Shown: in pieces, positions 22,367-59,990 of the stretch | How the letters are laid out: every line of letters starts with the position of its first letter | Numbering within the stretch: position 1 is the stretch's first letter | NCBI GenBank assembly: GCA_038897215.1 | Contig: JAWAWX010000001.1 | Coordinates: 640,001 to 704,000 of the forward strand | DNA from: Acidilobaceae archaeon | GTDB taxonomy: Archaea; Thermoproteota; Thermoprotei_A; Sulfolobales; Acidilobaceae | Length of the DNA stretch: 64,000 nt | Reading direction: 5' to 3' | The notes under the pieces: generated by a model | Database searches by the model: none | Seen by the model: only the letters and a program-made list of their open reading frames with translations | What the model was told of the DNA's origin: nothing | Program-made: the position numbers and the translations under genes

Positions 22367-23731
22367 TTGTATAGAGAGAAGCTACTGGGAGTAGCTGAGG
22401 CTCTGCCTTTCACGTACATCTCCTCCATGGAGACAGATAAGCTTATAGCCTGTGAGACTCTAGAGGTTGTGAAGGCTTACTTGAAAGGGCTCGTAAAAGC
22501 GGGAGCGGTCGACGAGCAGCTAGCCTCCTCGATAGAGGCAGAGCTTCTAGAGCTCCAGAGAGACCCAAGCCCTCTCTGGAGAGAGGAGGCAGCGGATATA
22601 CACGAGGCAATAGAATCCTACCTCGTCAAAAAGCTCGGCCTCGCGGCAAGCCAGATAGCTCTAGGCAGGAGTAGAAACGACCAGGTTGCTGCTGCTCTAC
22701 GCTTGAAGACCAAGACTCTGCTCTACGAGATCCTAGCGGAGATAGCAGAGCTCAGGAGAACGGCTCTAGACCTAGCTCTATCGAACCTCGAGACCCCGAT
22801 ACCAGCGTATACTCACGAGAGACCGGCTCAAGTCTCTAGCTTAGCCCATTACCTTTCGTACTTAGACGAGATGCTAGAAGACTACGAGAGAGTCTTGTCG
22901 AGCGTGCTAGAGATAGTGGATAAGTCACCTCTAGGAGCGGGCCCCGCAGCGGGCACCATGGTCCCCATCGATAGAGCCTACGTGTCCAGCCTCCTCTTCA
23001 GAGGCTTGGTTTACAATAGCCTCTACGCTTCTGGGAGCAGAGACTTCCTCATGCTAGCAGTAGCAGTAGCCGCTAGTCTTCTCGTAGCACTGTCGAGGAT
23101 AGCCTCAGACTTGATCTACTTCTCCTCCCCCGAGGCCGGCTTCCTAGAGCTTCCGTCCTCCCACCTAGACACTAGTAGCATAATGCCTCACAAGAAGAAC
23201 CCCGTGACTCTAGAGATTATCAGAGCGAGAGCCGGAGAAGCGGTAGGCCGTTTGGCCGGCATCATGAGCATAGCTAAGGGCTTGAGGTCAGGATACAGTC
23301 TAGACTTCCAGGAGGCTAACGACGACGCTCTCTATGTCCTGATAGAGGCTAAGAGAGCTCTAGCAGTTCTGAGAGACGCTCTCTCCAAGACCCGCGTCGA
23401 CTCGGAGCGCGCTAGAAGATACCTGGAGGAGTTTCAGCCAGTAGCGGCTGAGGTAGCGGAGCTACTGGCTCTCAAGACCGGTAAGCCTTTTAGAGAAGTC
23501 TACTGGGAGATAGCTAGAGCGATCAGAGAAGAGGGAGGCTTGGAGAGAGCTCTCGAGAAAATGGAGAAGCTCTACGGTGTCAGAGTCACTGTAGACGAGG
23601 CTCTACGCAAGCCTAGCGAGGGCTCGCCCAACCCGGACTATCTCAGGAGGCGCTTGGAGAGCAGGCTCGCGGAGGCTTCTCTGAGGTCCTCCGAGCTGAG
23701 GAAGATTCTGGAGTCTGCGAGGTGTAGGTGA
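22367..23731 (+). CDS. argH: Argininosuccinate lyase
   Basis: GRSRNDQ, SPLGAG, SSIMPHKKNP signature. Confidence 0.93.
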   Translation: MYREKLLGVAEALPFTYISSMETDKLIACETLEVVKAYLKGLVKAGAVDEQLASSIEAELLELQRDPSPLWREEAADIHEAIESYLVKKLGLAASQIALGRSRNDQVAAALRLKTKTLLYEILAEIAELRRTALDLALSNLETPIPAYTHERPAQVSSLAHYLSYLDEMLEDYERVLSSVLEIVDKSPLGAGPAAGTMVPIDRAYVSSLLFRGLVYNSLYASGSRDFLMLAVAVAASLLVALSRIASDLIYFSSPEAGFLELPSSHLDTSSIMPHKKNPVTLEIIRARAGEAVGRLAGIMSIAKGLRSGYSLDFQEANDDALYVLIEAKRALAVLRDALSKTRVDSERARRYLEEFQPVAAEVAELLALKTGKPFREVYWEIARAIREEGGLERALEKMEKLYGVRVTVDEALRKPSEGSPNPDYLRRRLESRLAEASLRSSELRKILESARCR

Positions 23732-24864
23732 GAGCCGTGGAGGGCTATCTAGTGCTCGAAGACGGGCTCGTAGTCAGAGGCGAGGGCTTCGGAGCACCCG
23801 GAGTAGCCGTAGGCGAGGTCGTCTTCAGCACAGCTCAAGTAGGCTATCCCGAGAGTCTAACAGACCCATCGTATAGAGGGCAGATCCTAATCCTATCCCA
23901 CCCCATGGTTGGAAACTATGGAGTCCCCGAGAAGAGCATAACCCTCCACAAGATCCCGCTCCACTTCGAGTCCGATAGAATCCAGGTAGCCGGGCTCGTC
24001 ATCTCCACTCTAACGAGACCAAGCCACTACGCGTCAGCAATGAGCCTCGACGAGTGGCTGAGAAGAGAGGGAATCCCAGGGCTCCAGGGAGTAGATACAA
24101 GGATGCTCATAAAGAGGATCAGAGAGCGCGGCGTCATGAGAGGAGCCCTCATTGTAGGCAAGCCTCTCGAGAGCGTAGACGAGGTCCTCGAGGAGGTGAG
24201 GAGATTCGACTACGAGAGGCTCAACTTCGTGAGAGAAGTGACGGTCAAAGAGCCAGTGGTTCACAGAAACCCGCACGCGAGCAAGCGGCTAATCCTCTTA
24301 GACTTCGGCGTTAAGTATGGCATCTTGAGAGCGCTCCTAGACAAGGGATTTGAAGTAATCAGAGTCCCCTACGACTCCGACCCGCTTAGATACTACTACG
24401 AGTTCGAGGCAGACGGAGTCGTGGTAAGCAATGGCCCCGGAAACCCTAGGTATCTAGCGGAGAGCACTGACGTCTTGGAGAAGCTGAGAGCAGTCATAGA
24501 GAACGGAGTGCCGACTCTAGGCATATGTCTAGGCAACCAGCTACTATCTATGAGCCTAGGGGCTAGCGTGTTCAAGCTGAAGTACGGGCATAGAGGCATA
24601 AACAAGCCCGTCTACGACCTCAAATCAGGCTTTGGGTTCGTCACGACGCAGAACCATGGCTACGCTGTAGACCTGTCTAGCGCTAGAGGCCTCAGATTGT
24701 GGATGGTAAACATCGACGACAAGACAGTCGAAGGGTTCCTTCACGAGAGTAAGCCTGTACTAGCCGTGCAATTCCATCCAGAAGCCTCTCCGGGCCCGTG
24801 GGACTCAACGTGGGTCTTCGAATACTTCAAGAAGATCGTGGAGAAGGTGGGGAGAAGTGCCTAG
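23728..24864 (+). CDS. carA: Carbamoyl-phosphate synthase small subunit
   Basis: TDPSYRGQ, SNGPGNP, GICLGNQ, QFHPEASPGP. Confidence 0.97.
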   Translation: MRAVEGYLVLEDGLVVRGEGFGAPGVAVGEVVFSTAQVGYPESLTDPSYRGQILILSHPMVGNYGVPEKSITLHKIPLHFESDRIQVAGLVISTLTRPSHYASAMSLDEWLRREGIPGLQGVDTRMLIKRIRERGVMRGALIVGKPLESVDEVLEEVRRFDYERLNFVREVTVKEPVVHRNPHASKRLILLDFGVKYGILRALLDKGFEVIRVPYDSDPLRYYYEFEADGVVVSNGPGNPRYLAESTDVLEKLRAVIENGVPTLGICLGNQLLSMSLGASVFKLKYGHRGINKPVYDLKSGFGFVTTQNHGYAVDLSSARGLRLWMVNIDDKTVEGFLHESKPVLAVQFHPEASPGPWDSTWVFEYFKKIVEKVGRSA

Positions 24865-27800
24865 AGAGTCTGTCAGCAAGGTTTTAGTGATAGGCTCGGG
24901 AGCCATAAAGATAGCTGAAGCAGCCGAGTTCGACTACAGCGGCTCTCAAGCCCTCAAAGCTCTCAAAGAAGAGGGGATTAAGAGTATTCTGATAAATCCT
25001 AACGTGGCGACAATCCAGACTAGCCACGAGCTAGCCGACAGAGTATATCTAATCCCCCTCACTCTAAAAGACGTCTCTAAGGTGATAGAAGCAGAGAGAC
25101 CAGATGGCATAATGGTAGGCTTCGGGGGGCAATCGGCTCTATCTCTAGGAGTAGCTCTCTACGACTCCGGGGTTCTCGAGAAGTATGGAGTCAAGGTTCT
25201 AGGGACTCCCATAGAGGGGATAAGGAGAGCTCTAGATAGAGAACTCTTCAAGAAAACAATGATAGAACACGGTCTCCCCGTGCCTCCCAGCAAGCCCGTG
25301 ACGACTCTAGAGGAGGCTCTAGAGGCGGGCGACGAGATAGGGTATCCTGTGATAGTTAGGGTTAGCTTCAACCTAGGCGGTAGAGGGTCGTTCATAGCCT
25401 GGAGTAGAGGAGAGCTCAGAGAGAAGATCTACAAAGCTATGGCTCACAGCGAGATCCGAAAGCTACTCGTAGAGAAGTATCTCCACCACTGGAAGGAGAT
25501 AGAGTATGAGGTCATGAGGGACAAAGTCGGGCAGAGCGTGGCCGTCGCGTGTTTAGAGAACGTGGACCCCATGGGGGTCCACACGGGAGACTCAATAGTA
25601 GTAGCTCCTTGCCAGACTCTAACCGATAGAGAGTACCAGCTTCTCAGAAAAGCCTCCATAGCGGTCGCTGACTCAATAGGCTTGATCGGAGAGTGCAACG
25701 TGCAGCTAGCTCTAGATCCCACATCTGAACTCTACTATATCATAGAGACAAATCCCAGAATGAGTAGAAGTAGCGCTCTAGCTAGCAAAGCCACAGGCTA
25801 CCCTCTAGCATACATTGCTGCCAAGCTAGCGCTAGGGTATACTCTAGACGAGCTTAAGAATAAGGTTACGGGGGTCACGACTGCTCTCTTCGAGCCCAGT
25901 CTCGACTACGTAGTCGTGAAGGTCCCCAGATGGGATCTCGAGAAGTTCGTGGGAGCAGAAAGAAGTCTGGGTAGCGAGATGATGAGTGTTGGCGAAGTCA
26001 TGGCTATAGGGAGGAATCTCCACGAGGCTTTCCAGAAAGCTATCAGAATGCTCGATATACGCGATGAACTCATAGGAGAATACTACGAGCAAGAAGAGCC
26101 TCTCGAAGCCGTCTTGGGAAGGCTGAGAAGGAGAGAGCCGTATACAATAATGCATATAGCTAAGGCTTTGAAGCTAGGAGCCACGGTAGAAGAGATATAT
26201 GAAGCTAGCGGGGTAGACAAGTACTTCATATATGTCATAGAGGATATAGTCAATGTAGCTGAAGCTCTTAAAAGAAACCCATCGAGAGAACTCGTCGAGA
26301 AAGCTAGGAGATTAGGGTTCACCTGCGAGCAAATCAAGAAGCTAGCCGGTAGAGACGTTGACTGTGAGAGGCCACGCGTTAAGCAGATAGATACTCTAGC
26401 TGGAGAGTGGCCTGCATCCACGAACTATCTCTACGTGAGTCACGATGCTAGCGAGGACGACGTCGAGCCAGCCTCCCACCCTAAAATCATGATCCTAGGT
26501 TCCGGGACGTTTAGAATAGGTGTTAGCGTAGAGTTCGACTGGGCTACAGTCAGCTTCCTAAAGGCGGCTAAGAGGAGAGGCTTCAAGGTGATAATGGTTA
26601 ACTACAACCCCGAAACAGTCTCTACAGACTGGGATGTTAGCGATAGACTATACTTCGAGGAGCTAGCTCTAGAGAGAGTCCTCGATATACATGATTTCGA
26701 GAAACCTGACTACGTTGTAGCCTTTGCAGGAGGCCAGATCCCAAACAATATAGCTAGGAAACTGGAGGAGAGAGGAGTTAAGCTTCTTGGGACGAGCGGG
26801 AGAAGCGTCGACATAGCTGAGGATAGAGCAAAGTTCTCCAAGCTACTCGATAAGCTCGGAATACGTCAACCAGAGTGGATAGAGGCTAAGAGTCTTGAGG
26901 AAGCTCTCAGATTCGCTGAAAGCGTCGGGTATCCCGTTATAGTAAGACCTAGCTACATCATAGGAGGCATGGCTGTGAGACTCGTTAAAGATAGAGACGA
27001 GCTAGAGTCATTCCTGAAACTTGCTAGAGACGTATCGAGAGAGCACCCTGTAGTAGTGTCTAAGTACATAGAGGGGATGGAGGTAGAGGTGGATGCTGTA
27101 TCAGACGCGTCTAGAGTTGTTGGAGTTCTCTCAGAGCACATCGAGCCAGCAGGTGTTCATAGTGGAGACGCTACACACGTAACTCCCCTCGTGAAGACTC
27201 CCCCAGAGTCAGCTAAGGAGATGAAGGAGATAGCCTTGAGTTTAGCCATAGAGCTCGGCATAAGAGGACCCTTCAACATACAATACGTAGTTGATGAGAA
27301 GAAGAGAGTCTACGTGATAGAGCTAAACCTAAGAGCAAGCAGGTCTATGCCCTTCGCCAGCAAGAGTAGAGGCGTAGACTTCATGGAACTCGCTGCTCAA
27401 GCAACACTAGATGGTAGCATAAAGCTAGGAGAGCCAGGAGAGTTCTACGAGATCCCAGCTAAGGCATACGCGGTTAAGACTCCCCAGTTCTCCTGGGCTC
27501 AGATTAGAGGAGCCTACCCGTTCCTCGGACCCGAGATGAGGTCTACCGGTGAAGTCGCGGCTCTCGACTCAGACTACCTCCTAGCTTTAATTAAGAGCTG
27601 GCTAGCAGCTAAGCCGAATAAAGTCCCATCGAGAGGAGCACTAGTGTACACGTACTCCAACGGCTCGAACACTCTTAACGTGACGGCTAAGATTCTCGAG
27701 AAGCTAGGAGTCAAAGTCTATACTCTAGAGGGCGCTCTCACGAGAGTAGGAGAGCCTATCACTAAGGAGGAGGCCCTAAAGCTAATCAGAGAGGGTAGCG

Positions 27801-28000
27801 TAGACCTGGTGGCCACATCGGGCTTCACTCCAGACCTCGACTACAAGATAAGAAGGCTTGCTGTAGACATGAATATACCCATAGTCCTAGACTCCACTCT
27901 AGCTCTAGAGCTAGCTCGAGCTATGGAGAGACTAGCGGTGAGGGGAGACTATGAGGTGAGAGAAGTCTCGGAGTACTGGGTCTTCACTAGGTCGCTCTAA
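24857..28000 (+). CDS. carB: Carbamoyl-phosphate synthase large subunit
   Basis: AEFDYSG, NPRMSRSSALASKATG, duplicated ATP-grasp, MRSTGEV. Confidence 0.97.
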   Translation: MPRESVSKVLVIGSGAIKIAEAAEFDYSGSQALKALKEEGIKSILINPNVATIQTSHELADRVYLIPLTLKDVSKVIEAERPDGIMVGFGGQSALSLGVALYDSGVLEKYGVKVLGTPIEGIRRALDRELFKKTMIEHGLPVPPSKPVTTLEEALEAGDEIGYPVIVRVSFNLGGRGSFIAWSRGELREKIYKAMAHSEIRKLLVEKYLHHWKEIEYEVMRDKVGQSVAVACLENVDPMGVHTGDSIVVAPCQTLTDREYQLLRKASIAVADSIGLIGECNVQLALDPTSELYYIIETNPRMSRSSALASKATGYPLAYIAAKLALGYTLDELKNKVTGVTTALFEPSLDYVVVKVPRWDLEKFVGAERSLGSEMMSVGEVMAIGRNLHEAFQKAIRMLDIRDELIGEYYEQEEPLEAVLGRLRRREPYTIMHIAKALKLGATVEEIYEASGVDKYFIYVIEDIVNVAEALKRNPSRELVEKARRLGFTCEQIKKLAGRDVDCERPRVKQIDTLAGEWPASTNYLYVSHDASEDDVEPASHPKIMILGSGTFRIGVSVEFDWATVSFLKAAKRRGFKVIMVNYNPETVSTDWDVSDRLYFEELALERVLDIHDFEKPDYVVAFAGGQIPNNIARKLEERGVKLLGTSGRSVDIAEDRAKFSKLLDKLGIRQPEWIEAKSLEEALRFAESVGYPVIVRPSYIIGGMAVRLVKDRDELESFLKLARDVSREHPVVVSKYIEGMEVEVDAVSDASRVVGVLSEHIEPAGVHSGDATHVTPLVKTPPESAKEMKEIALSLAIELGIRGPFNIQYVVDEKKRVYVIELNLRASRSMPFASKSRGVDFMELAAQATLDGSIKLGEPGEFYEIPAKAYAVKTPQFSWAQIRGAYPFLGPEMRSTGEVAALDSDYLLALIKSWLAAKPNKVPSRGALVYTYSNGSNTLNVTAKILEKLGVKVYTLEGALTRVGEPITKEEALKLIREGSVDLVATSGFTPDLDYKIRRLAVDMNIPIVLDSTLALELARAMERLAVRGDYEVREVSEYWVFTRSL

Positions 28001-28095
28001 GAGAGCACCACGTAGCATAAAGCCTGAGCGCGCCGAAAAAGCTCTCAGCTCGCTTATTAGCTCTCGAGAAGGCTTCGGCTTCTTATAGGCGATGA

Positions 28096-29328
28096 GTGTT
28101 GCCTAGAGTCTCAATGAGCTACAACACTCTGCTAGATGAGATCGAGGAGGCTCCGACAGTCTCTCTGCTCAGAATCGCTGAGGAGCTGAGGAGAAGCGGA
28201 GCAGACCCCATAATGCTTCTAGCAGGAGAGCCTGGTGTGCCCCCGCCTCTAGAAGTCAGAGAGATGCTTTGCGAAGCTCTCAGAGTAGAGTCGATGAGCC
28301 TCTACTCCTACACGCCGTCGGAGGGGGTGGCTGAGCTGAGGGAAGCCATAGCCTACGACTTGAAGGAGCTAGGGGGGATCGATGTCAAGCCCTCGCAGAT
28401 AGTTATCACAGCGGGAGGCCAGGGAGCGATGTTCTCTTCTCTAGCAGCGATCGCTAGAGAGGGGGACGAGGTCATCCTCGTAGACCCAACCTACTTCGGC
28501 TACAACGGGCTGATCAAGTTCTTCAAGCTTAGAGCTCGACGTATCATTGCTCCAGCCGAGAGAGGCTTCCAACCGGACCCGGAGGCCTTGAAGGAGGCGA
28601 TCAGCCCGGGTAGAACTAAAGCAGTCATCCTCGTCAGTCCAGACAACCCAACGGGCAGGCTTCTCGATAGAAGCGTTGCTAGAGCTATAGCGGAGATAGC
28701 TCAAGACTACGGGCTCTGGATTCTCTATGACGAGCCCTACAAGACTCTGGTCTACGAGGGCGAGCACGTCTACCTCTACGAGCTCGCTCCAGAGAACGTC
28801 CTAGCTCTCAACGCTTTCAGCAAAGACCCGGGCATTCCGGGCTGGAGGCTGGGCTACGTTTACGGGCCGGAGTGGCTGATGAAGAGAGTCGCTATAGCGT
28901 CAGAGGTCTCCGTCTACAACCCCCCCTCTATAGCGCAGGAGCTAGCGCTAAGGTATCTCAGGAATAGAGAGCTAAGGAGGAGGCACATAGAGAGAGTTAG
29001 AAGCATATACGTCGAGCGCAGAGATGTGATGCTTAGAGAGGCGAGCAAGCTTAGAGAAGCGCGGTTCATCAAGCCTGGTGGAGCCATGTTTCTCTTCGTA
29101 GACCTCTCAGCCTACCTGGAGAGAGCGGGCATGACTTCAGAGCAGCTAGCGGAGAAGCTACTAGTAGAGAAGCACGTAGCGACAGTCCCCGGTAGCTTCT
29201 TCGGAGAGTCTACCAGGAGATACCTGAGGCTAACGTTCACCACAGAGACCCCGGAGAGGATCAAGGAGGGGGTCGCGAGGCTCAGAGAGCTACTAGAGGA
29301 GTCCACGACTACCACTCAAAGATTCTGA
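28096..29328 (+). CDS. Class I/II PLP aminotransferase (aspartate aminotransferase-like)
   Basis: SPDNPTG, YDEPY, FSKDPGIPGWRLGY. Confidence 0.9.
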   Translation: MLPRVSMSYNTLLDEIEEAPTVSLLRIAEELRRSGADPIMLLAGEPGVPPPLEVREMLCEALRVESMSLYSYTPSEGVAELREAIAYDLKELGGIDVKPSQIVITAGGQGAMFSSLAAIAREGDEVILVDPTYFGYNGLIKFFKLRARRIIAPAERGFQPDPEALKEAISPGRTKAVILVSPDNPTGRLLDRSVARAIAEIAQDYGLWILYDEPYKTLVYEGEHVYLYELAPENVLALNAFSKDPGIPGWRLGYVYGPEWLMKRVAIASEVSVYNPPSIAQELALRYLRNRELRRRHIERVRSIYVERRDVMLREASKLREARFIKPGGAMFLFVDLSAYLERAGMTSEQLAEKLLVEKHVATVPGSFFGESTRRYLRLTFTTETPERIKEGVARLRELLEESTTTTQRF

Positions 29329-53406: not shown

Positions 53407-54939
53407 CTAACCCCCTCTCACGGTTAAGACTATAGATTGAGATGAGATTACGTTCTCCATTACCCACCAATCCATATCAAGTCTTACGGTGCATGATGCT
53501 GTCGGCGGAGCTATGGCTGTCAGATAGAGTTTGACCGCTAGCCATGAGCCCGTCCAGGATGGTGGCGGGCTGATATACAGGTCTCCTGTGGTTTCTCTTT
53601 GAAGCCCTCCATTTGCTATAACTATGTCGCTAGGGGCTTTTCTTCCATCCCAGGAGACTAGAGATATAGTGGCGTAGACTCTGGGGTCTGTGCAGTACAC
53701 GTGGGCGGCTCTCAGCCTCGACGTGAATGCGTGAGCTAGATTGCTGTAGACGTGCAAGAAGTCTCCAGCGAATCCAAACCTGTAGACGTCGCCTCCGACA
53801 ACGTAGTCGAAGAGTGCAGAGTAGACAAGGCCCCCTCTGTCGTCGAATATCTCTATCCTAGCGTTCCTAAACACTAACCCGTAGTCGGTGCCGGCTGAGT
53901 ACGTGACTCTAGTTAGGTCTAGCTGGGGAGCCCAGACAGGTATCGATGCAATCCCCCCGCTGGATACTGCCTCGAAGACCACGGCTCCTCCCTGTCTTGG
54001 AACAATCCTGGCTCTCCAGCCGTCAGGCAGCCCCGTGATGTTGACGAACCAGGGGGGCTTATCTATCGTGACCACCATATTGTCGAAATAGAAGGTTCCC
54101 GTGAACAGGCTCGTTGAGATCCAGTAGCCGACGCCGACTCTATTAGGGTAGAACCTCTGCCCGGCTCCTATGCTGGCTGAGCTTAGCAGTGTTACATTCC
54201 AGTGCTCTGCTCTCCAGGCTCTAAAGTCTACGAGCGCGACGACCTGAGCGAGGTACTCGTGCTCTAGCGTCATCCTGGTGCCTAGCCTCACGTGTGAGAG
54301 TACAGTGGTTCCATAGAGTATTGTTGATGAGAGGCTATCGCCAGTCCTGGCGGTCAGCAGCGTAGAGTTATAGCCTATTCTGTAGAATCTCCCAGTAGTA
54401 GTGGTATCGACGTAGACACCGTCGGCTCTTATACGCGGGAAACCCGTATAACCGGGATAAGGTGTATAACTGGTTCTCATAGCTAGAGCAGCTACGTAAA
54501 CTCTCCTGCCTTCGCTAGCGTAAGCGCTGATATCGACATTAGCTAAGGCCATACACTCATAATCCCAGCCTGAGGGTCCTCTGGATCCCGCGGCTATGGA
54601 TAGAGCTCCTCGAGTAGAATCCCAGCTCCAAGTACACGTAAACGATGTCACTCGGCCAGCGGTTATCGGGTTATCGTCAAAGACGTCGAAGAAGACCGCC
54701 GACCTATGCACCCTCTCTAGCCTATACTGAGCATTAACGCTGACGTCGGCGGATGTTCTGTTATCATACAAGACTACTGTAACCCCGGGCGTTCTCGGGT
54801 CCTCTAGCCACACGACCGGCGGAGCTATCTGAGCGACCCCGTGCCCCCACCTATAAGCGAATACTCCCCCCCAGACCGTTGCTGTCACCACGGCCAGAGC
54901 GAAGATAGCTGTCAGCGCTCTCGCGGCTTTACTCAACAC
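53407..54939 (-). CDS. Secreted beta-rich hypothetical protein (possible fibre subunit with inserted lectin-like domain)
   Basis: Signal peptide, no C-terminal anchor, Thr/aromatic-rich, FDVFD...FDNMVV bracketed insert. Confidence 0.55.
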   Translation of the reverse strand: MLSKAARALTAIFALAVVTATVWGGVFAYRWGHGVAQIAPPVVWLEDPRTPGVTVVLYDNRTSADVSVNAQYRLERVHRSAVFFDVFDDNPITAGRVTSFTCTWSWDSTRGALSIAAGSRGPSGWDYECMALANVDISAYASEGRRVYVAALAMRTSYTPYPGYTGFPRIRADGVYVDTTTTGRFYRIGYNSTLLTARTGDSLSSTILYGTTVLSHVRLGTRMTLEHEYLAQVVALVDFRAWRAEHWNVTLLSSASIGAGQRFYPNRVGVGYWISTSLFTGTFYFDNMVVTIDKPPWFVNITGLPDGWRARIVPRQGGAVVFEAVSSGGIASIPVWAPQLDLTRVTYSAGTDYGLVFRNARIEIFDDRGGLVYSALFDYVVGGDVYRFGFAGDFLHVYSNLAHAFTSRLRAAHVYCTDPRVYATISLVSWDGRKAPSDIVIANGGLQRETTGDLYISPPPSWTGSWLAVKLYLTAIAPPTASCTVRLDMDWWVMENVISSQSIVLTVRGG

Positions 54940-55029
54940 TCTTTAACCCCCGATACCATGGCCTCTTAGCGTTTTAATTTCCTATAGTCAGTCGATAAAC
55001 GTGAACATAGCCGAGCGCTTGCGCTCGAG

Positions 55030-55495
55030 AGATTAGCGTAATCGAGAGGAGCATCCCCGCGAGTAGTCTCTAGAGAGCTAGTAGAGGCCGGCTCTAAAGC
55101 CGCGGCGAGCCTAGCGGAGCACAGAGAACCCCGTAGTCTCGAGCCCGGAGAGGTCCGCGAGGAGCCGTTAGCCAAGCCGCTCTACGGGAGCGGGCAACGC
55201 GGGCTCTCTATGATGCTCGGGTCTCGGAGGTCAGCGGATCGAGGAGCGGGGTCGACGCTACCAGCTGGCATCGCCAGTTACGGAGTCCGAGCCTCTTACA
55301 GAGCCTGCTTTCACGCCGTCAGGCTGGTAGCGGGTCAAGCACCTCTACTCTCATCTCAGCGTGGCGGTTCACGCGAAAGTGCCTCGTATCGATCCTTCGA
55401 GAAGAGCCCCGAGTCTTTGAGGCGGCAAGCGGGCTCATTGGCGCTCTCGGGGGCGCGAGGGGTTCTTGCATGCTATTCCTCCCGACTCGCTGGCA
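55030..55495 (+). ncRNA. Candidate large structured non-coding RNA, family unknown
   Basis: ~64% GC over 55141-55500 (hand count), no CTAG from 55115 to 55530, at least six nested helices, cUACGg and GNRA loops; no credible ORF. Confidence 0.65.
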
Positions 55496-55571
55496 GAGAG
55501 CTTGGTTTAGAGAGTTAAGCTTTAGCTCGCTCTAGCTTCTAACGCTCTAGAGTAGAGGGGGTGCTCGGCTT

Positions 55572-56936
55572 TTGGCTAGACGTCTGGAGTACGATGTCGT
55601 GATAGTGGGGCTCGGCCCTGCTGGAGCTGCTCTAGCCTACTTTCTGAGGAATAGCGGGCTTAGAGTAGCTGGCTTAGACTTAGTGGACGAGAGTAGAGTG
55701 TGGTCTAAGCCGTGTGGAGACGCTATTGGAGCAGGCTACTTCGACTCTCTAGGTCTCCCGCACCCTTCAGGAGACGAGGTTAAGACGTATGTGAACGAGG
55801 CTAGAGTCTACGCTCCGAGCGAAGAGGCCTATATCTCATTCAGGGGGGAGAGAGCTGGCTACATAATCGATAGACGCGGCTACGGGCTGAAGCTGATTAG
55901 AGAAGCTGAGAAGAGGGGGGTAGACGTCTACCTGAGCACCAAGGCTCTCCATCCAGTGATCAGAGACGGTAGGCTAGAGGGGGTTAGGGCTAAGAGGGGC
56001 GAGGAGGACGTAGAGTTCGCGGCTAGAGTGGTCGTGGACGCTACTGGAGCCTCGGCTTCTATCAGATACAAGCTCCCCAAAGAGTGGCCTGTTGTCGATG
56101 AGCCCGAGGAGACGGACTTCGAGCTAGCCTACAGGAGGATCCTGGAGCTGGAGGACGAGATCCCTGATTTCGACGCGATCAGGCTATACTTCAACGTAGA
56201 GATAGCTCCCGGAGGGTACTGGTGGTTCTTCCCCGAGGGCAGGAACGCTGTCAACATAGGGCTAGGAGTCCAGATGGGTAAAGGCTACCCGAGCCCTCTA
56301 GAACTCTACGAGAAGCACTTATCGCGCAGGAGAGAAGTGAGTAGAGTCAGGAGAGTCTTGAGCGACGGCGGCGCCAAGCTGCCGACAAGGAGACCCCTAA
56401 AGACCATGGTCTGGGATAACTTCATAGCTATAGGTGATAGCGCTTACACAGTAAACCCTGTTCACGGAGGAGGAATAGGCTACGCTATGACGGCAGCTAA
56501 GCACGCTGCGGAGGCTATCCTTGAGGCTCACTCGACCGGAGACTACTCAGCTAGAGGGCTCTGGAAGCTCAACCTACTCTACATGAGAGATCTTGGAGCC
56601 AAGCAGGCTTCACTAGACGTCTACAGGATATTCATGCAGACTCTGGGAAACGATGAGATAGAGTGGGCTGTGAGAAAGCTTTCATCAGAAGACCTCACCA
56701 TAGCTTTACTAGAAGGAGAGCTAAGACTAGACGCGAGCCTCCTAGACAAGGTGAAGATCGTGGCGAGCCTTGTCGGCAAGCCACGTCTACTAGCCAAGCT
56801 GGTGAAGACAGCGGAATACGCTAGAGCAGCCAAGAGTCTCTACAAGAGCTACCCCGAGGATCCTAGTGGTCTAGAGAGCTGGAGTGAGAGAGTAGAGTCT
56901 CTCATCAGGTCCTTCAAGAGAGAGGTAGAAGCTTAG
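55572..56936 (+). CDS. Digeranylgeranylglycerophospholipid (geranylgeranyl) reductase
   Basis: GLGPAG FAD motif, KPCGDA, PGGYWWFFP, GDSA...NPVHGGGI. Confidence 0.9.
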   Translation: MARRLEYDVVIVGLGPAGAALAYFLRNSGLRVAGLDLVDESRVWSKPCGDAIGAGYFDSLGLPHPSGDEVKTYVNEARVYAPSEEAYISFRGERAGYIIDRRGYGLKLIREAEKRGVDVYLSTKALHPVIRDGRLEGVRAKRGEEDVEFAARVVVDATGASASIRYKLPKEWPVVDEPEETDFELAYRRILELEDEIPDFDAIRLYFNVEIAPGGYWWFFPEGRNAVNIGLGVQMGKGYPSPLELYEKHLSRRREVSRVRRVLSDGGAKLPTRRPLKTMVWDNFIAIGDSAYTVNPVHGGGIGYAMTAAKHAAEAILEAHSTGDYSARGLWKLNLLYMRDLGAKQASLDVYRIFMQTLGNDEIEWAVRKLSSEDLTIALLEGELRLDASLLDKVKIVASLVGKPRLLAKLVKTAEYARAAKSLYKSYPEDPSGLESWSERVESLIRSFKREVEA

Positions 56937-56961
56937 CTCTCCTCACTCGAGGCTCATCTCT

Positions 56962-57843
56962 ATGTCCTCGAGAGAGGTGGTCGAAGGCTGGGTTGTGGTC
57001 GTCTCTAGAAGCGGACGCTTAGACTTGATGACTGTGAGAGGCTACAGGCACCCCAGCGGAGAGCTCGTAGTCTCGCCCTACATGAGCTTCTCTAGGAGAC
57101 TCAAGTCCTACGACTTCAGAGAAGTAGAGGAGTTTGTTAGATTCGTTGACTGCATTGGGAGACACGCTCCCGTGATCGCGGAGTCTCTCGTAGTGACCTA
57201 CATCGACCCAGAGAGAGCTCTGAAAGTTAGGCGCGCTGACCTAGACCCCAGAGTTCTCGAGCTACTAGACACGCTAGCTCCAGAGTGGGCTGGGCTCACG
57301 GGCTCATGGGCAGTGTTCTCCGAGAAGCCGGGGAGCGATGTCGACCTCTTGGTCTACGGAGACTCCTCGAAGCTATACAGGGCTCTCCAAGACTTGAGAG
57401 ACGAGGGTCTCATACGCTCCTGCAGACTCGAGGATAGACTAGAGAAGACGAGAGACCTCTCTGGCCCCAAGCTATCAGCTCTCCTAGCTGGGAGAAGGCT
57501 TCTAGACTCGTGCTACAAAGAGCACCCCTATACTATAAGGGTTTTAGAGAGACTCGATAGAGAGCCTTGTAGCGAGAGAGTCTACTATTGGGGGAGGTAT
57601 GAGGGGCTAGTCAAGATAGAGGAGGTCTTAGGGGCTCCAGCTGTGCCTACACGATATCGAGCAGTCCTCCTGGATATAGGAGTGGAGGCTGTCCTCGAGA
57701 CGTGGCACACTAGGTTCGCTGAGCTCCCTCGAGGAGTCTACACGGCTAGATTAGTGCTACTCGAGGAGAGAGGAGTAGTCAAAGCGAGCCCCGACGTAGA
57801 TGGGTGGATTGAGGTAGAGCAAGTGGGGGATAGAGGGTCTTGA
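56962..57843 (+). CDS. Pol-beta-superfamily nucleotidyltransferase (COG1665-like), paralogue 1
   Basis: VRGYRHP N-motif, GLTGS...SDVDLLVYG catalytic motif, beta-rich (OB-like) C-terminus. Confidence 0.75.
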   Translation: MSSREVVEGWVVVVSRSGRLDLMTVRGYRHPSGELVVSPYMSFSRRLKSYDFREVEEFVRFVDCIGRHAPVIAESLVVTYIDPERALKVRRADLDPRVLELLDTLAPEWAGLTGSWAVFSEKPGSDVDLLVYGDSSKLYRALQDLRDEGLIRSCRLEDRLEKTRDLSGPKLSALLAGRRLLDSCYKEHPYTIRVLERLDREPCSERVYYWGRYEGLVKIEEVLGAPAVPTRYRAVLLDIGVEAVLETWHTRFAELPRGVYTARLVLLEERGVVKASPDVDGWIEVEQVGDRGS

Positions 57844-58772
57844 AGACGGCTGTAGAGCCAGCCCACGGGAGCATAGTCTATAGCGTAGACGGGCTGGTGG
57901 CTCAGGCTCTCGGGATTCCCCACGCTCCAGAACTCATTCCCGTCATACCGAAATACGTGTTATGCAATGAGGGAGCGTGGTCTAGGCCGGCGAGCAGATT
58001 GTGTAGAGTCATCGACGAGTACGGTCCCAGAGGGCTTTCCAGAGCTCTGTCTAAGCTTAGCTCTCTCAATAAGAGAGATGGAGTCTACGGTGCTCTAGTC
58101 CCCTACGTAGAGCGTTGGAGAACACTTCTCCTCATAGACCCAAGGGAAGCTCTAGAAGCGAGAATCAGGTCTCCTAGAAGCCAATTAGACCACACGGTTC
58201 TGAGAATCTCCAGCGTGCTGAGAAGCCTCGGAGTCTCTCTGGGAGAGCTCGGGCTAACAGGCTCTCTAGCAGCTGGAATCGAGAACCCCAAGTTCTCCGA
58301 CGTAGACCTCGTAGTCTACGGAGCGCGAGCAGCTAGAAGAGTTCTCGAGTTCTTCGAGTCGAGCACGATTAGAGGAGTCGAGAGGAGAGAGTTCGGCGGT
58401 CTATCCGTTAACCCCCCGGTTAACACTAGCTGGAGGAGAGCTAGACTAGAGGGAGTCGAAGTCTCCTGGGTAGGAGTCCCTCTCGAGGGAGAGCTCTGCA
58501 CACCCCTAGAGAGCTACTTCAAGGTGCCGAAACCCGAGAAACACGCTGAGAAAGTGCTGAGAATCGAGCCGGAGCAGGAGGAGAGCCTCCTCTACCCTCT
58601 ATGCGTTAAAGCGGAAACCGGAGAGTATCTTGTCTCCTTCGAGTACAACATAGCCATAATCGTCTACAAGGGGGGAGTGTTTAGAGTCAAGGGGCTTGTC
58701 GACGAGAACGAGACAGTAGTATACCTAGGGCTTAGAGAGCTCCCAGGAGAGCTATCCAGCGTAGACCAGTGA
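57840..58772 (+). CDS. Pol-beta-superfamily nucleotidyltransferase (COG1665-like), paralogue 2
   Basis: GIPH...PKY, DPRE, GLTGS...SDVDLVVYG; 4-nt overlap with paralogue 1. Confidence 0.75.
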   Translation: MKTAVEPAHGSIVYSVDGLVAQALGIPHAPELIPVIPKYVLCNEGAWSRPASRLCRVIDEYGPRGLSRALSKLSSLNKRDGVYGALVPYVERWRTLLLIDPREALEARIRSPRSQLDHTVLRISSVLRSLGVSLGELGLTGSLAAGIENPKFSDVDLVVYGARAARRVLEFFESSTIRGVERREFGGLSVNPPVNTSWRRARLEGVEVSWVGVPLEGELCTPLESYFKVPKPEKHAEKVLRIEPEQEESLLYPLCVKAETGEYLVSFEYNIAIIVYKGGVFRVKGLVDENETVVYLGLRELPGELSSVDQ

Positions 58773-58828
58773 GACGAGAGGTCTCAGCGGGGCTAGAGCT
58801 CTATCAAGGCGAGAGAGTCTACGCTGAG

Positions 58829-58850
58829 TTTAAGAGTGCTCTCCTCTTAA
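58829..58850. promoter_or_regulatory. TATA box overlapped by inverted repeat TTAAGAG-N7-CTCTTAA upstream of hsp20
   Basis: Perfect 7-bp arms at 58830-58836 and 58844-58850. Confidence 0.45.
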
Positions 58851-58888
58851 CAAACTTCTCGAGAAGACTCCCGGGGGGCTGATGAAGA

Positions 58889-59449
58889 ATGTCGTGGTTT
58901 CCCAGGAGGAGGAGGTTTTTCCGCGATATAGACGAGTTCTTTAGAGACTTCTTCAGAGACATGGAGGAGTTCTTAGAGGAGATAGAGGAAGAGTTCGAGA
59001 GACTCCGTCGTAGAGCAGTAGAGGAGGGGAGAGAGGAGGGCTATAGAGTCAGATACTTCGGCCCCTACGTTTACGGCATGAGGATAACCATCGGGCCAGA
59101 CGGGATCCCTAGAGTCGAGGAGTTCGGTAACGTTAGGAGAGAGCGCGGCAGGAGACCGCTGATATCTGAAGAGATGGAGCCGATAGTTGATGTGATCGAG
59201 AGAGAAGACGAGGTACGAGTAGTGGCTGAGCTCCCTGGAGCCGATAAGGAGAAGATAGACGTCAAAGTGGTCGGCAAGAAGGTGGTGATTAAAGCGAGCA
59301 ACGGGAGAAAGTACTACAAGGAAGTAGACCTGGAGCACGAGGTAGACCCTGATACAGCTAAAGCCACTTACAAGAACGGCATACTCGAGGTCGTATTCAA
59401 GAAGAAGAAGAGAGTAGAGGAAGAGGGTAAGAGGATCAAAGTGGAGTAA
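58889..59449 (+). CDS. hsp20: Small heat-shock protein Hsp20
   Basis: GPYVYG...GPDG, EPIVDV, AELPG, ATYKNGILEV, IKVE tail. Confidence 0.95.
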   Translation: MSWFPRRRRFFRDIDEFFRDFFRDMEEFLEEIEEEFERLRRRAVEEGREEGYRVRYFGPYVYGMRITIGPDGIPRVEEFGNVRRERGRRPLISEEMEPIVDVIEREDEVRVVAELPGADKEKIDVKVVGKKVVIKASNGRKYYKEVDLEHEVDPDTAKATYKNGILEVVFKKKKRVEEEGKRIKVE

Positions 59450-59990
59450 CGTCTCTACACTCCTCGTCGAGCTCTCTCTCTACCACGCTATCTCCGACTA
59501 TCTTGCTCCCCCCGTCGAAATCGCATAGAACTATAGTGAATCTCTCTCTACCCTCCACGGCTCTAGAAAGCCACTCTTTCAGCTCTCTGCACTCCTCTCC
59601 TGAGGCTTCTCTACACGCTATGTCTACAGGCTCTTCGAACATGTAAACTAGCCCCTCGATTGTCGTTATCAGTCCTGGCGTGTAGATAGTGGGAGTGAAT
59701 TGGAGATTCTTCTCTCTAATCTTGATACCGGCTTTCGAAGACTTGACGACCATGTATCTCAACTCCTCCTCTCCTGAGACCTCAACGAGTATCTTCTTAG
59801 GCTTCTGCTCTTCTGCTAGCATCACGTTCCTGTTGGAGAAACCGCAATTCCCGCATATCGCGACGAGGATTAAGACTCTACCGAAGTGGGGGACAGAGTA
59901 AGTGTACACGTCTACCTCTAACTTCTCCTGACCGCAGACAGGGCACTTCTCCCTACTCGAGTATAGCTTGACAGGCTCCTCTGTCTCCAC
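59436..59990 (-). CDS. ZPR1 zinc-finger protein
   Basis: CPVCG...PHFG...CGNCGF, VVKS, ITTIEG. Confidence 0.9.
   Translation of the reverse strand: METEEPVKLYSSREKCPVCGQEKLEVDVYTYSVPHFGRVLILVAICGNCGFSNRNVMLAEEQKPKKILVEVSGEEELRYMVVKSSKAGIKIREKNLQFTPTIYTPGLITTIEGLVYMFEEPVDIACREASGEECRELKEWLSRAVEGRERFTIVLCDFDGGSKIVGDSVVERELDEECRDVTPL

Follow-up and report, generated by a model that had tools for sequence, protein, structure and literature searches.

Our comparison of a 64-kb window (C1:640001-704000, i.e. the whole stretch of DNA that was analysed) with the genome of a sister Acidilobaceae species has revealed a unique, non-coding, GC-rich addition of ~520 nt between two divergent genes, which leaves both promoter-like boxes of the site in place and folds no better than shuffled sequence. 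On balance, we read this insertion as a relic of acquired DNA, present in one copy and with no fold under selection: leftover foreign DNA appears more likely than a new RNA gene, because the folding is at shuffle level and no relatives are found. The species would have gained the insertion after its split from the sister species, the probable source being horizontally acquired DNA, i.e. a virus, a plasmid, a mobile element or a decayed foreign gene; the insertion would then have settled between the two divergent promoters, where it may act at most as a spacer that holds both promoters apart, with no selected RNA fold, and its helices would be the chance product of a sequence of 64% GC.

The insertion site and its neighbourhood

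The source genome is a single contig (C1) of 1.16 Mb with 53.9% GC, whose nearest protein relatives carry the Acidilobaceae label and are associated with hot springs. Two anchor words that are common to both species, TATAGTCAG (54983-91) and TTAAGCTTT (55515-23), each located beside one promoter-like box, are separated by ~520 nt here and by 17 nt in the sister species, while the gene-to-gene gap, anchored on the flanking genes, measures 633 nt here and ~120 nt there. The short form is present at all three places shown, no copy of the insertion occurs elsewhere in the sister genome, and the insertion is missing at the syntenic site of both the sister species and the outgroups, with the flanks kept, as befits a lineage-specific intergenic insertion. 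The contig of a third species (SRR32459161) stops 51 nt short of GGR. The earlier note had drawn a structured element at 55030-55495: the GC-rich stretch is indeed located there, but the element is larger, extending over ~54992-55514 (Table 1).

Table 1. Coordinates of the insertion, its internal features and its flanking genes in the window.
Feature	Position	Strand	Remarks
Left neighbour gene	53407-54939	-	510-aa protein, no known family, 13 relatives found
Intergenic gap	54940-55571		Between the divergent 510-aa gene (-) and GGR (+)
TATA-like AT-rich box	54972-54980	-	~33 nt before the left gene's start; the sister species has an AT-rich box in the corresponding position
Species-specific insertion	54992-55514		~520 nt, in place of the sister species' 17-nt spacer; from shared anchors and gene-anchored gap
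Left part of insertion	54995-55120		Word usage host-like (87th percentile), three CTAG
6-bp hairpin with G-CUUG-C loop	55012-55027	+	Left of the start in the earlier note
GC-rich CTAG-free core	55120-55470		5-mer signature at the 7th genome percentile (structural RNAs 0.6-2.7)
Small hairpin	55177-55193	+	Pairing probability 0.86
24-pair ungapped imperfect stem	55199-55222/55285-55308	+	Best structural feature of the element; 3 G-U, 3 pyrimidine mismatches
TATA-like box of GGR	55515-55523	+	Present whether or not the insertion is; 57 nt upstream of GGR start, as in the sister species
Right neighbour gene, GGR (digeranylgeranylglycerophospholipid reductase)	55572-56936	+	NF041080 563.5 bits (cut-off 580); TIGR02032 above cut-off

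Outside the genus, hsp20 mostly points away from GGR over a short gap, and the short gap is therefore presumably the ancestral state. The gene of the 510-aa protein occurs between hsp20 and GGR solely in this genus (elsewhere it is not a neighbour of GGR), which suggests that the site took in new, foreign-looking DNA at an earlier time. More than 30 spacers of the genome are longer than their counterparts in the sister species by 150 nt or more, many of them unexplained, and the present insertion is the largest expansion that lies wholly inside a syntenic spacer. A decayed hsp20, the gene found at the site in the outgroups, has been rejected as the content of the insertion: there is no similarity, and an intact hsp20 is located at 58889.

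Several observations concern the neighbouring genes themselves. The 510-aa protein has an N-terminal hydrophobic stretch, PF18998 is found in two of its 13 relatives, one of the relatives is from Infirmifilum, and the protein is possibly a surface protein. Two tandem nucleotidyltransferase-like genes, similar to each other and with a weak PF01909 match, are located at 56962-58772; several genomes of the family have such a pair close to GGR, in one or the other orientation. The block 53407-58772, which comprises the 510-aa gene, GGR and the nucleotidyltransferase-like pair, is inverted with respect to hsp20, relative to the sister species, and the breakpoints of this inversion coincide with the ends of the block, not with the insertion.

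The insertion is not an artefact of assembly, since a second MAG and Logan contigs cross it with zero differences; contigs from a second study span all of it except 24 nt. The flanks of these second copies differ by just 1 base in 3.7 kb, so the identity over the insertion is uninformative on selection. Two metatranscriptomes, from a study shared with one of the DNA samples, have yielded 0 reads at 54100-59499, a count that comes from ~3% of each run and is also 0 for hsp20.

The position of the element directly upstream of GGR, together with the mutually exclusive helices that can be drawn in it, would fit a long leader, either a riboswitch or a thermosensor, for GGR and the two nucleotidyltransferase-like genes downstream. 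We consider such a leader very improbable: GGR retains its own box to the right of the insertion, and GGR stands with both downstream genes in the sister species, where the element is missing, an arrangement that speaks against both a leader and an RNA-enzyme unit. No riboswitch model matches either, and the conformational switch that had been proposed from two competing helices is not supported, as competing helices are the norm among shuffles.

Composition and coding potential

The compositional claims of the earlier note hold. The GC content of the core (230/360 = 0.639 at 55141-55500) compares with 0.539 for the genome and 0.523 for intergenic DNA, and the CTAG-free stretch is confirmed, with CTAG occurring at 55070, 55078 and 55111 and next at 55532, against a genome average of one per 81 bp. 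A GC content of at least 63% combined with zero CTAG is seen at 0.14% of genome positions; among the 42 loci with high GC and no CTAG, the majority are coding, while the rest comprise chiefly rRNA, RNase P and one tRNA cluster, along with a few unexplained spacers. Six of 77 long spacers exceed the insertion's spacer in GC, and those that are identified contain known RNA genes; in the sister genome, every GC island is a tRNA, rRNA, RNase P or SRP gene. The composition of the core is RNA-like and the signal is real; foreign DNA would yield the identical signature. The rule that GC islands mark functional RNAs, to which the earlier note appealed, has been established in AT-rich hyperthermophiles (PMC3150283); the present host has 54% GC and holds 143 islands with at least 61.5% GC over 360 nt. 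Further GC-rich spacers or stretches with a weak coding signal, likewise unexplained, are located at C1:35774-36150, which reaches 70% GC and adjoins a tRNA-Arg, and at C1:749134-749396, 831348-832367 and 148116-148606.

The gap contains no credible ORF, as had been stated: the best frameshift-tolerant coding score is 9, compared with at least 24 for real genes (1st percentile), codon periodicity is absent (P = 0.16-0.73, as opposed to ~0 for GGR), and gene callers place nothing there. An orphan or foreign protein gene could be sought in two long stop-free frames of the + strand, one of 158 codons (55042-55515) and one of 132 codons (55137-55532), or in the ATG-initiated ORF of 102 aa at 55210, but it is highly unlikely, given the hexamer score of -49 for the last and the lack of periodicity and of gene calls; neither stop-free frame has relatives in searches that included 1.8 billion proteins, Pfam and NCBIfam.

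Folding of the insertion

The earlier note had proposed a highly structured, fully nested fold on the + strand. All of the complementary words that it listed are found where it placed them, but neither the number of helices nor their nesting exceeds what shuffled sequences provide: perfect helices of at least 6, 7, 8 and 10 bp number 37, 11, 4 and 1 in the element, compared with shuffle means of 38, 11, 3 and 0.3, and the best nested set comprises 56 bp, compared with 58.6 +/- 8 in shuffles, 39 of 60 of which reach 56. The same count separates the controls from all 60 of their shuffles (53 vs 34 for RNase P, 87 vs 54.5 for a 16S piece). The minimum free energy (MFE) of the insertion has a z-score of -0.50 on the + strand and -0.41 on the - strand, i.e. 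no better than shuffles, an outcome that the earlier note had itself named as refuting its proposal, whereas the controls from the same genome reach -4.2 (RNase P), -13 (SRP) and -4.7 (16S piece). The ensemble diversity per nt is 0.40 for the element, against 0.21 and 0.06 for controls, and its predicted helices shift with window and temperature.

The proposed fold as a whole lies 19 kcal/mol above the MFE, and most of its helices have a pairing probability below 25%. The 10-bp helix 55256-65/55323-32 and the domain-closing helices 55141/55206, 55236/55395 and 55404/55436 do not exceed 0.02; the hairpin at 55177-93 is the only well-supported internal helix, although its loop is of 5 nt unless a bulged G is assumed. 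The enclosing terminal stem (55046-54/55470-81) is weaker than the best terminal duplex in 96% of shuffles, and in the form 55046-56 with 55471-81 it vanishes in a widened window. A preference of UNCG and GNRA loops for the + strand is seen to the extent that three capped hairpins are located there and one on the - strand, but the excess of special tetraloops is within chance (3 observed vs 1.2 expected, P = 0.12).

Neither fold nor helix content thus rises above composition-matched shuffles, as a structured ncRNA of a new class would be expected to do, with the single exception of one stem. This 24-pair stem, which is absent from the list of the earlier note and incompatible with two of its helices, has a score that is matched by 2 of 100 shuffles (best-stem P ~0.02), although it is one among several statistics tried; read on the + strand, all three of its non-Watson-Crick pairs are G-U, and it scores 18.9 there compared with 14.9 on the - strand. 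The window 55199-55308, the ends of which were picked post hoc, has a z-score of -3.2 on either strand, and a sliding folding scan is not significant (-2.1 for the element, -0.6 to -4.5 for shuffles). Single-sequence folding is, moreover, a weak test for ncRNA (PMC3150283), and shuffle-level folding therefore lowers the probability of an RNA without excluding it.

A young, species-specific ncRNA gene on the + strand is accordingly a candidate that we regard as possible, with limited confidence. Its transcript would start at ~55003, driven by the AT-rich box of the left gene (a box that could drive the + strand as well), and would end before the GGR promoter; its core would be the stem at 55199-55308 and not the previously drawn fold, and it would have arrived with mobile DNA and would probably bind protein, by analogy with sRkB/sRkC of Pyrococcus abyssi. 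The RNA-like composition, the stem with its strand-specific G-U pairs, the z-score of the core (-1.7 to -2.0), the distribution of the capped hairpins and the precedent of transcribed, GC-rich spacers that are confined to one species and related to IS605 ends (PMC3124441) argue for such a gene. On the other hand, whole-element folding and nesting are at chance, the stem carries the qualifications given above, with equal z-scores on both strands, there is no conservation, and the element has no C box, no D box on the + strand and no run of four T; a sigma-70 promoter scan of the region is uninformative for archaea. A broader form of this proposal, i.e. a transcribed RNA of ~500 nt whose fold and function would lie outside Rfam and which a single Acidilobaceae species would have acquired recently, the source being perhaps an archaeal virus or mobile element, as yet unsampled, with a new class of large RNA, seems to us doubtful. 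Of the undescribed large ncRNA that the earlier note had inferred, the non-coding nature, the lack of an Rfam match and the RNA-like composition stand, but the structure is at shuffle level.

Relatives, known classes and origin

The element is present as a single copy in its own genome, and BLAST against 350 genomes of the class has returned no homologue. A covariance model of the first domain of the previously proposed fold, searched against the sister genome and 66 family genomes, and one of the 24-pair stem, searched against 149 order genomes and five close ones, match only the element itself; these searches have a single sequence as their query, and models built on one sequence overlook remote relatives. 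The lack of a homologue in the sister species and in any of the 66 family genomes searched makes a ribozyme or RNP scaffold, as had been suggested, unlikely in a housekeeping role. The search for a donor among phages, plasmids, viral contigs, family TnpB loci and 1.8 billion proteins has given no match, and pattern scans of metagenomes, GTDB genomes and viral contigs have given chance matches only. Two CRISPR arrays with the same repeat are located at C1:10319-12730 and 23682-28961; the self-search showed no match between them and the element.

A second insertion of ~170 nt, missing in the sister species, is found outside the window, directly upstream of the PINA promoter (C1:732432-732565; L107:1033-1166). 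It folds better than the element (z -2.4; its nested pairs are reached by 2 of 60 shuffles), and has an ACA end after its closing stem, with no match in one quick rRNA target search. A module shared between this spacer (C1:732444-732558) and the element has been rejected: the letters in common number 22, whereas the best chain in each of the 60 shuffles reaches 25-32. Three shared words co-occur at these two sites only; the covariance model R1 misses the PINA site, and the hairpins are absent from relatives and from the metagenome matches.

No Rfam model matches inside the element, even at E = 10, and the absence of RNase P, SRP, tRNA and rRNA signatures is confirmed by model and motif searches: archaeal RNase P RNA (RF00373) has no model match, conserved regions or P4, archaeal SRP RNA (RF01857) has no model match and no helix 8 motif, and both genes sit elsewhere in the genome; for a tRNA, split tRNA or rRNA fragment there is no T-loop motif, and the longest words shared with host tRNA and rRNA are 12 nt. 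A C/D guide RNA is rejected for want of an exact C box on either strand and of a D box on the + strand, and an H/ACA guide RNA because no ACA is positioned after a hairpin; antisense matches to rRNA and tRNA are short. Group I and II introns, small ribozymes and riboswitches have neither an Rfam match nor core motifs in order, and a TPP riboswitch is rejected. The dispersed copies that would indicate a MITE are not seen: there is one copy, with no target-site duplication and no significant terminal inverted repeat. An omega-RNA remnant of IS200/IS605 type is likewise rejected, with no TnpB above cut-off in the genus and a null nhmmer search against 30 family TnpB loci.

A second, degenerate RNase P RNA, or a circle excised by the splicing endonuclease from the terminal stem 55046-56/55471-81, appears scarcely credible. 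RNase P-like conserved-region words occur at 55046, 55119 and 55427, but a profile built from 30 crenarchaeal RNase P RNAs scores the element nil, while 30 of 200 shuffles do score, and there is no Rfam or pairwise match. For the circle, a 4-bp helix with one 3-nt bulge has the right bulge-helix-bulge geometry, but the other side is a 5+1 loop, and the stem is not significant, as detailed above.

Other structured loci have been noted in the same genome: the SRP RNA (C1:51512-51834) has a long perfect duplex extension, its sister copy aligning over a shorter stretch at 77% identity; a long near-perfect palindrome (C1:557592-557792; z -9.6) is located in a spacer longer than that of the sister species; and a tRNA-Gln-like gene at C1 ~565330-565410, missed by ARAGORN and probably containing an intron, would provide the UUG isoacceptor that is otherwise missing from the list.

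For a relic of acquired DNA we have counted the anchor distance (17 vs ~520 nt), the ancestral short gap, the earlier DNA uptake, the other expanded and GC-rich spacers, the chance level of folding, nesting, tetraloops and terminal stem, and the lack of homologues in sister, family, order and class genomes; against it we have counted the lack of a donor, of a target-site duplication and of a strong terminal repeat, a rare GC/CTAG composition that, outside coding DNA, is seen mostly in rRNA and RNase P, the weakness of single-sequence folding tests (PMC3150283), and the RNA genes in the identified GC-richer spacers. As a relic, the insertion has little significance beyond exemplifying spacer expansion in one archaeal lineage, and the lesson is that, at a genomic GC of 54%, GC islands with helices drawn by hand are misleading. 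A true RNA at this site would be a rarity among crenarchaea, as a large orphan, and would point to a mobile element not yet sampled; even then, nothing long-standing would become testable now.

Compared with known systems, the element resembles RNase P and SRP RNAs in length class, high GC, CTAG depletion and non-host word usage, but these fold far better than shuffles, and RNase P recurs throughout the relatives; the element does neither. The crenarchaeal MITEs and IS200/IS605 derivatives are non-autonomous mobile elements that form non-coding intergenic insertions; the element is also such an insertion, missing in the sister species, but it differs from them in its one copy, without target-site duplication or terminal repeat, in a genome without TnpB above cut-off. 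The sRkB/sRkC spacers of Pyrococcus abyssi, of 200-340 nt, bind L7Ae via K-turns and resemble the 3' end of IS605 OrfB (PMC3124441). They form six related, transcribed copies, whereas the element is single-copy and without a link to TnpB; what they have in common is that they are species-specific spacers of hyperthermophiles, absent from related genomes, one of the Pyrococcus spacers also being located directly upstream of an ORF (PMC3124441).
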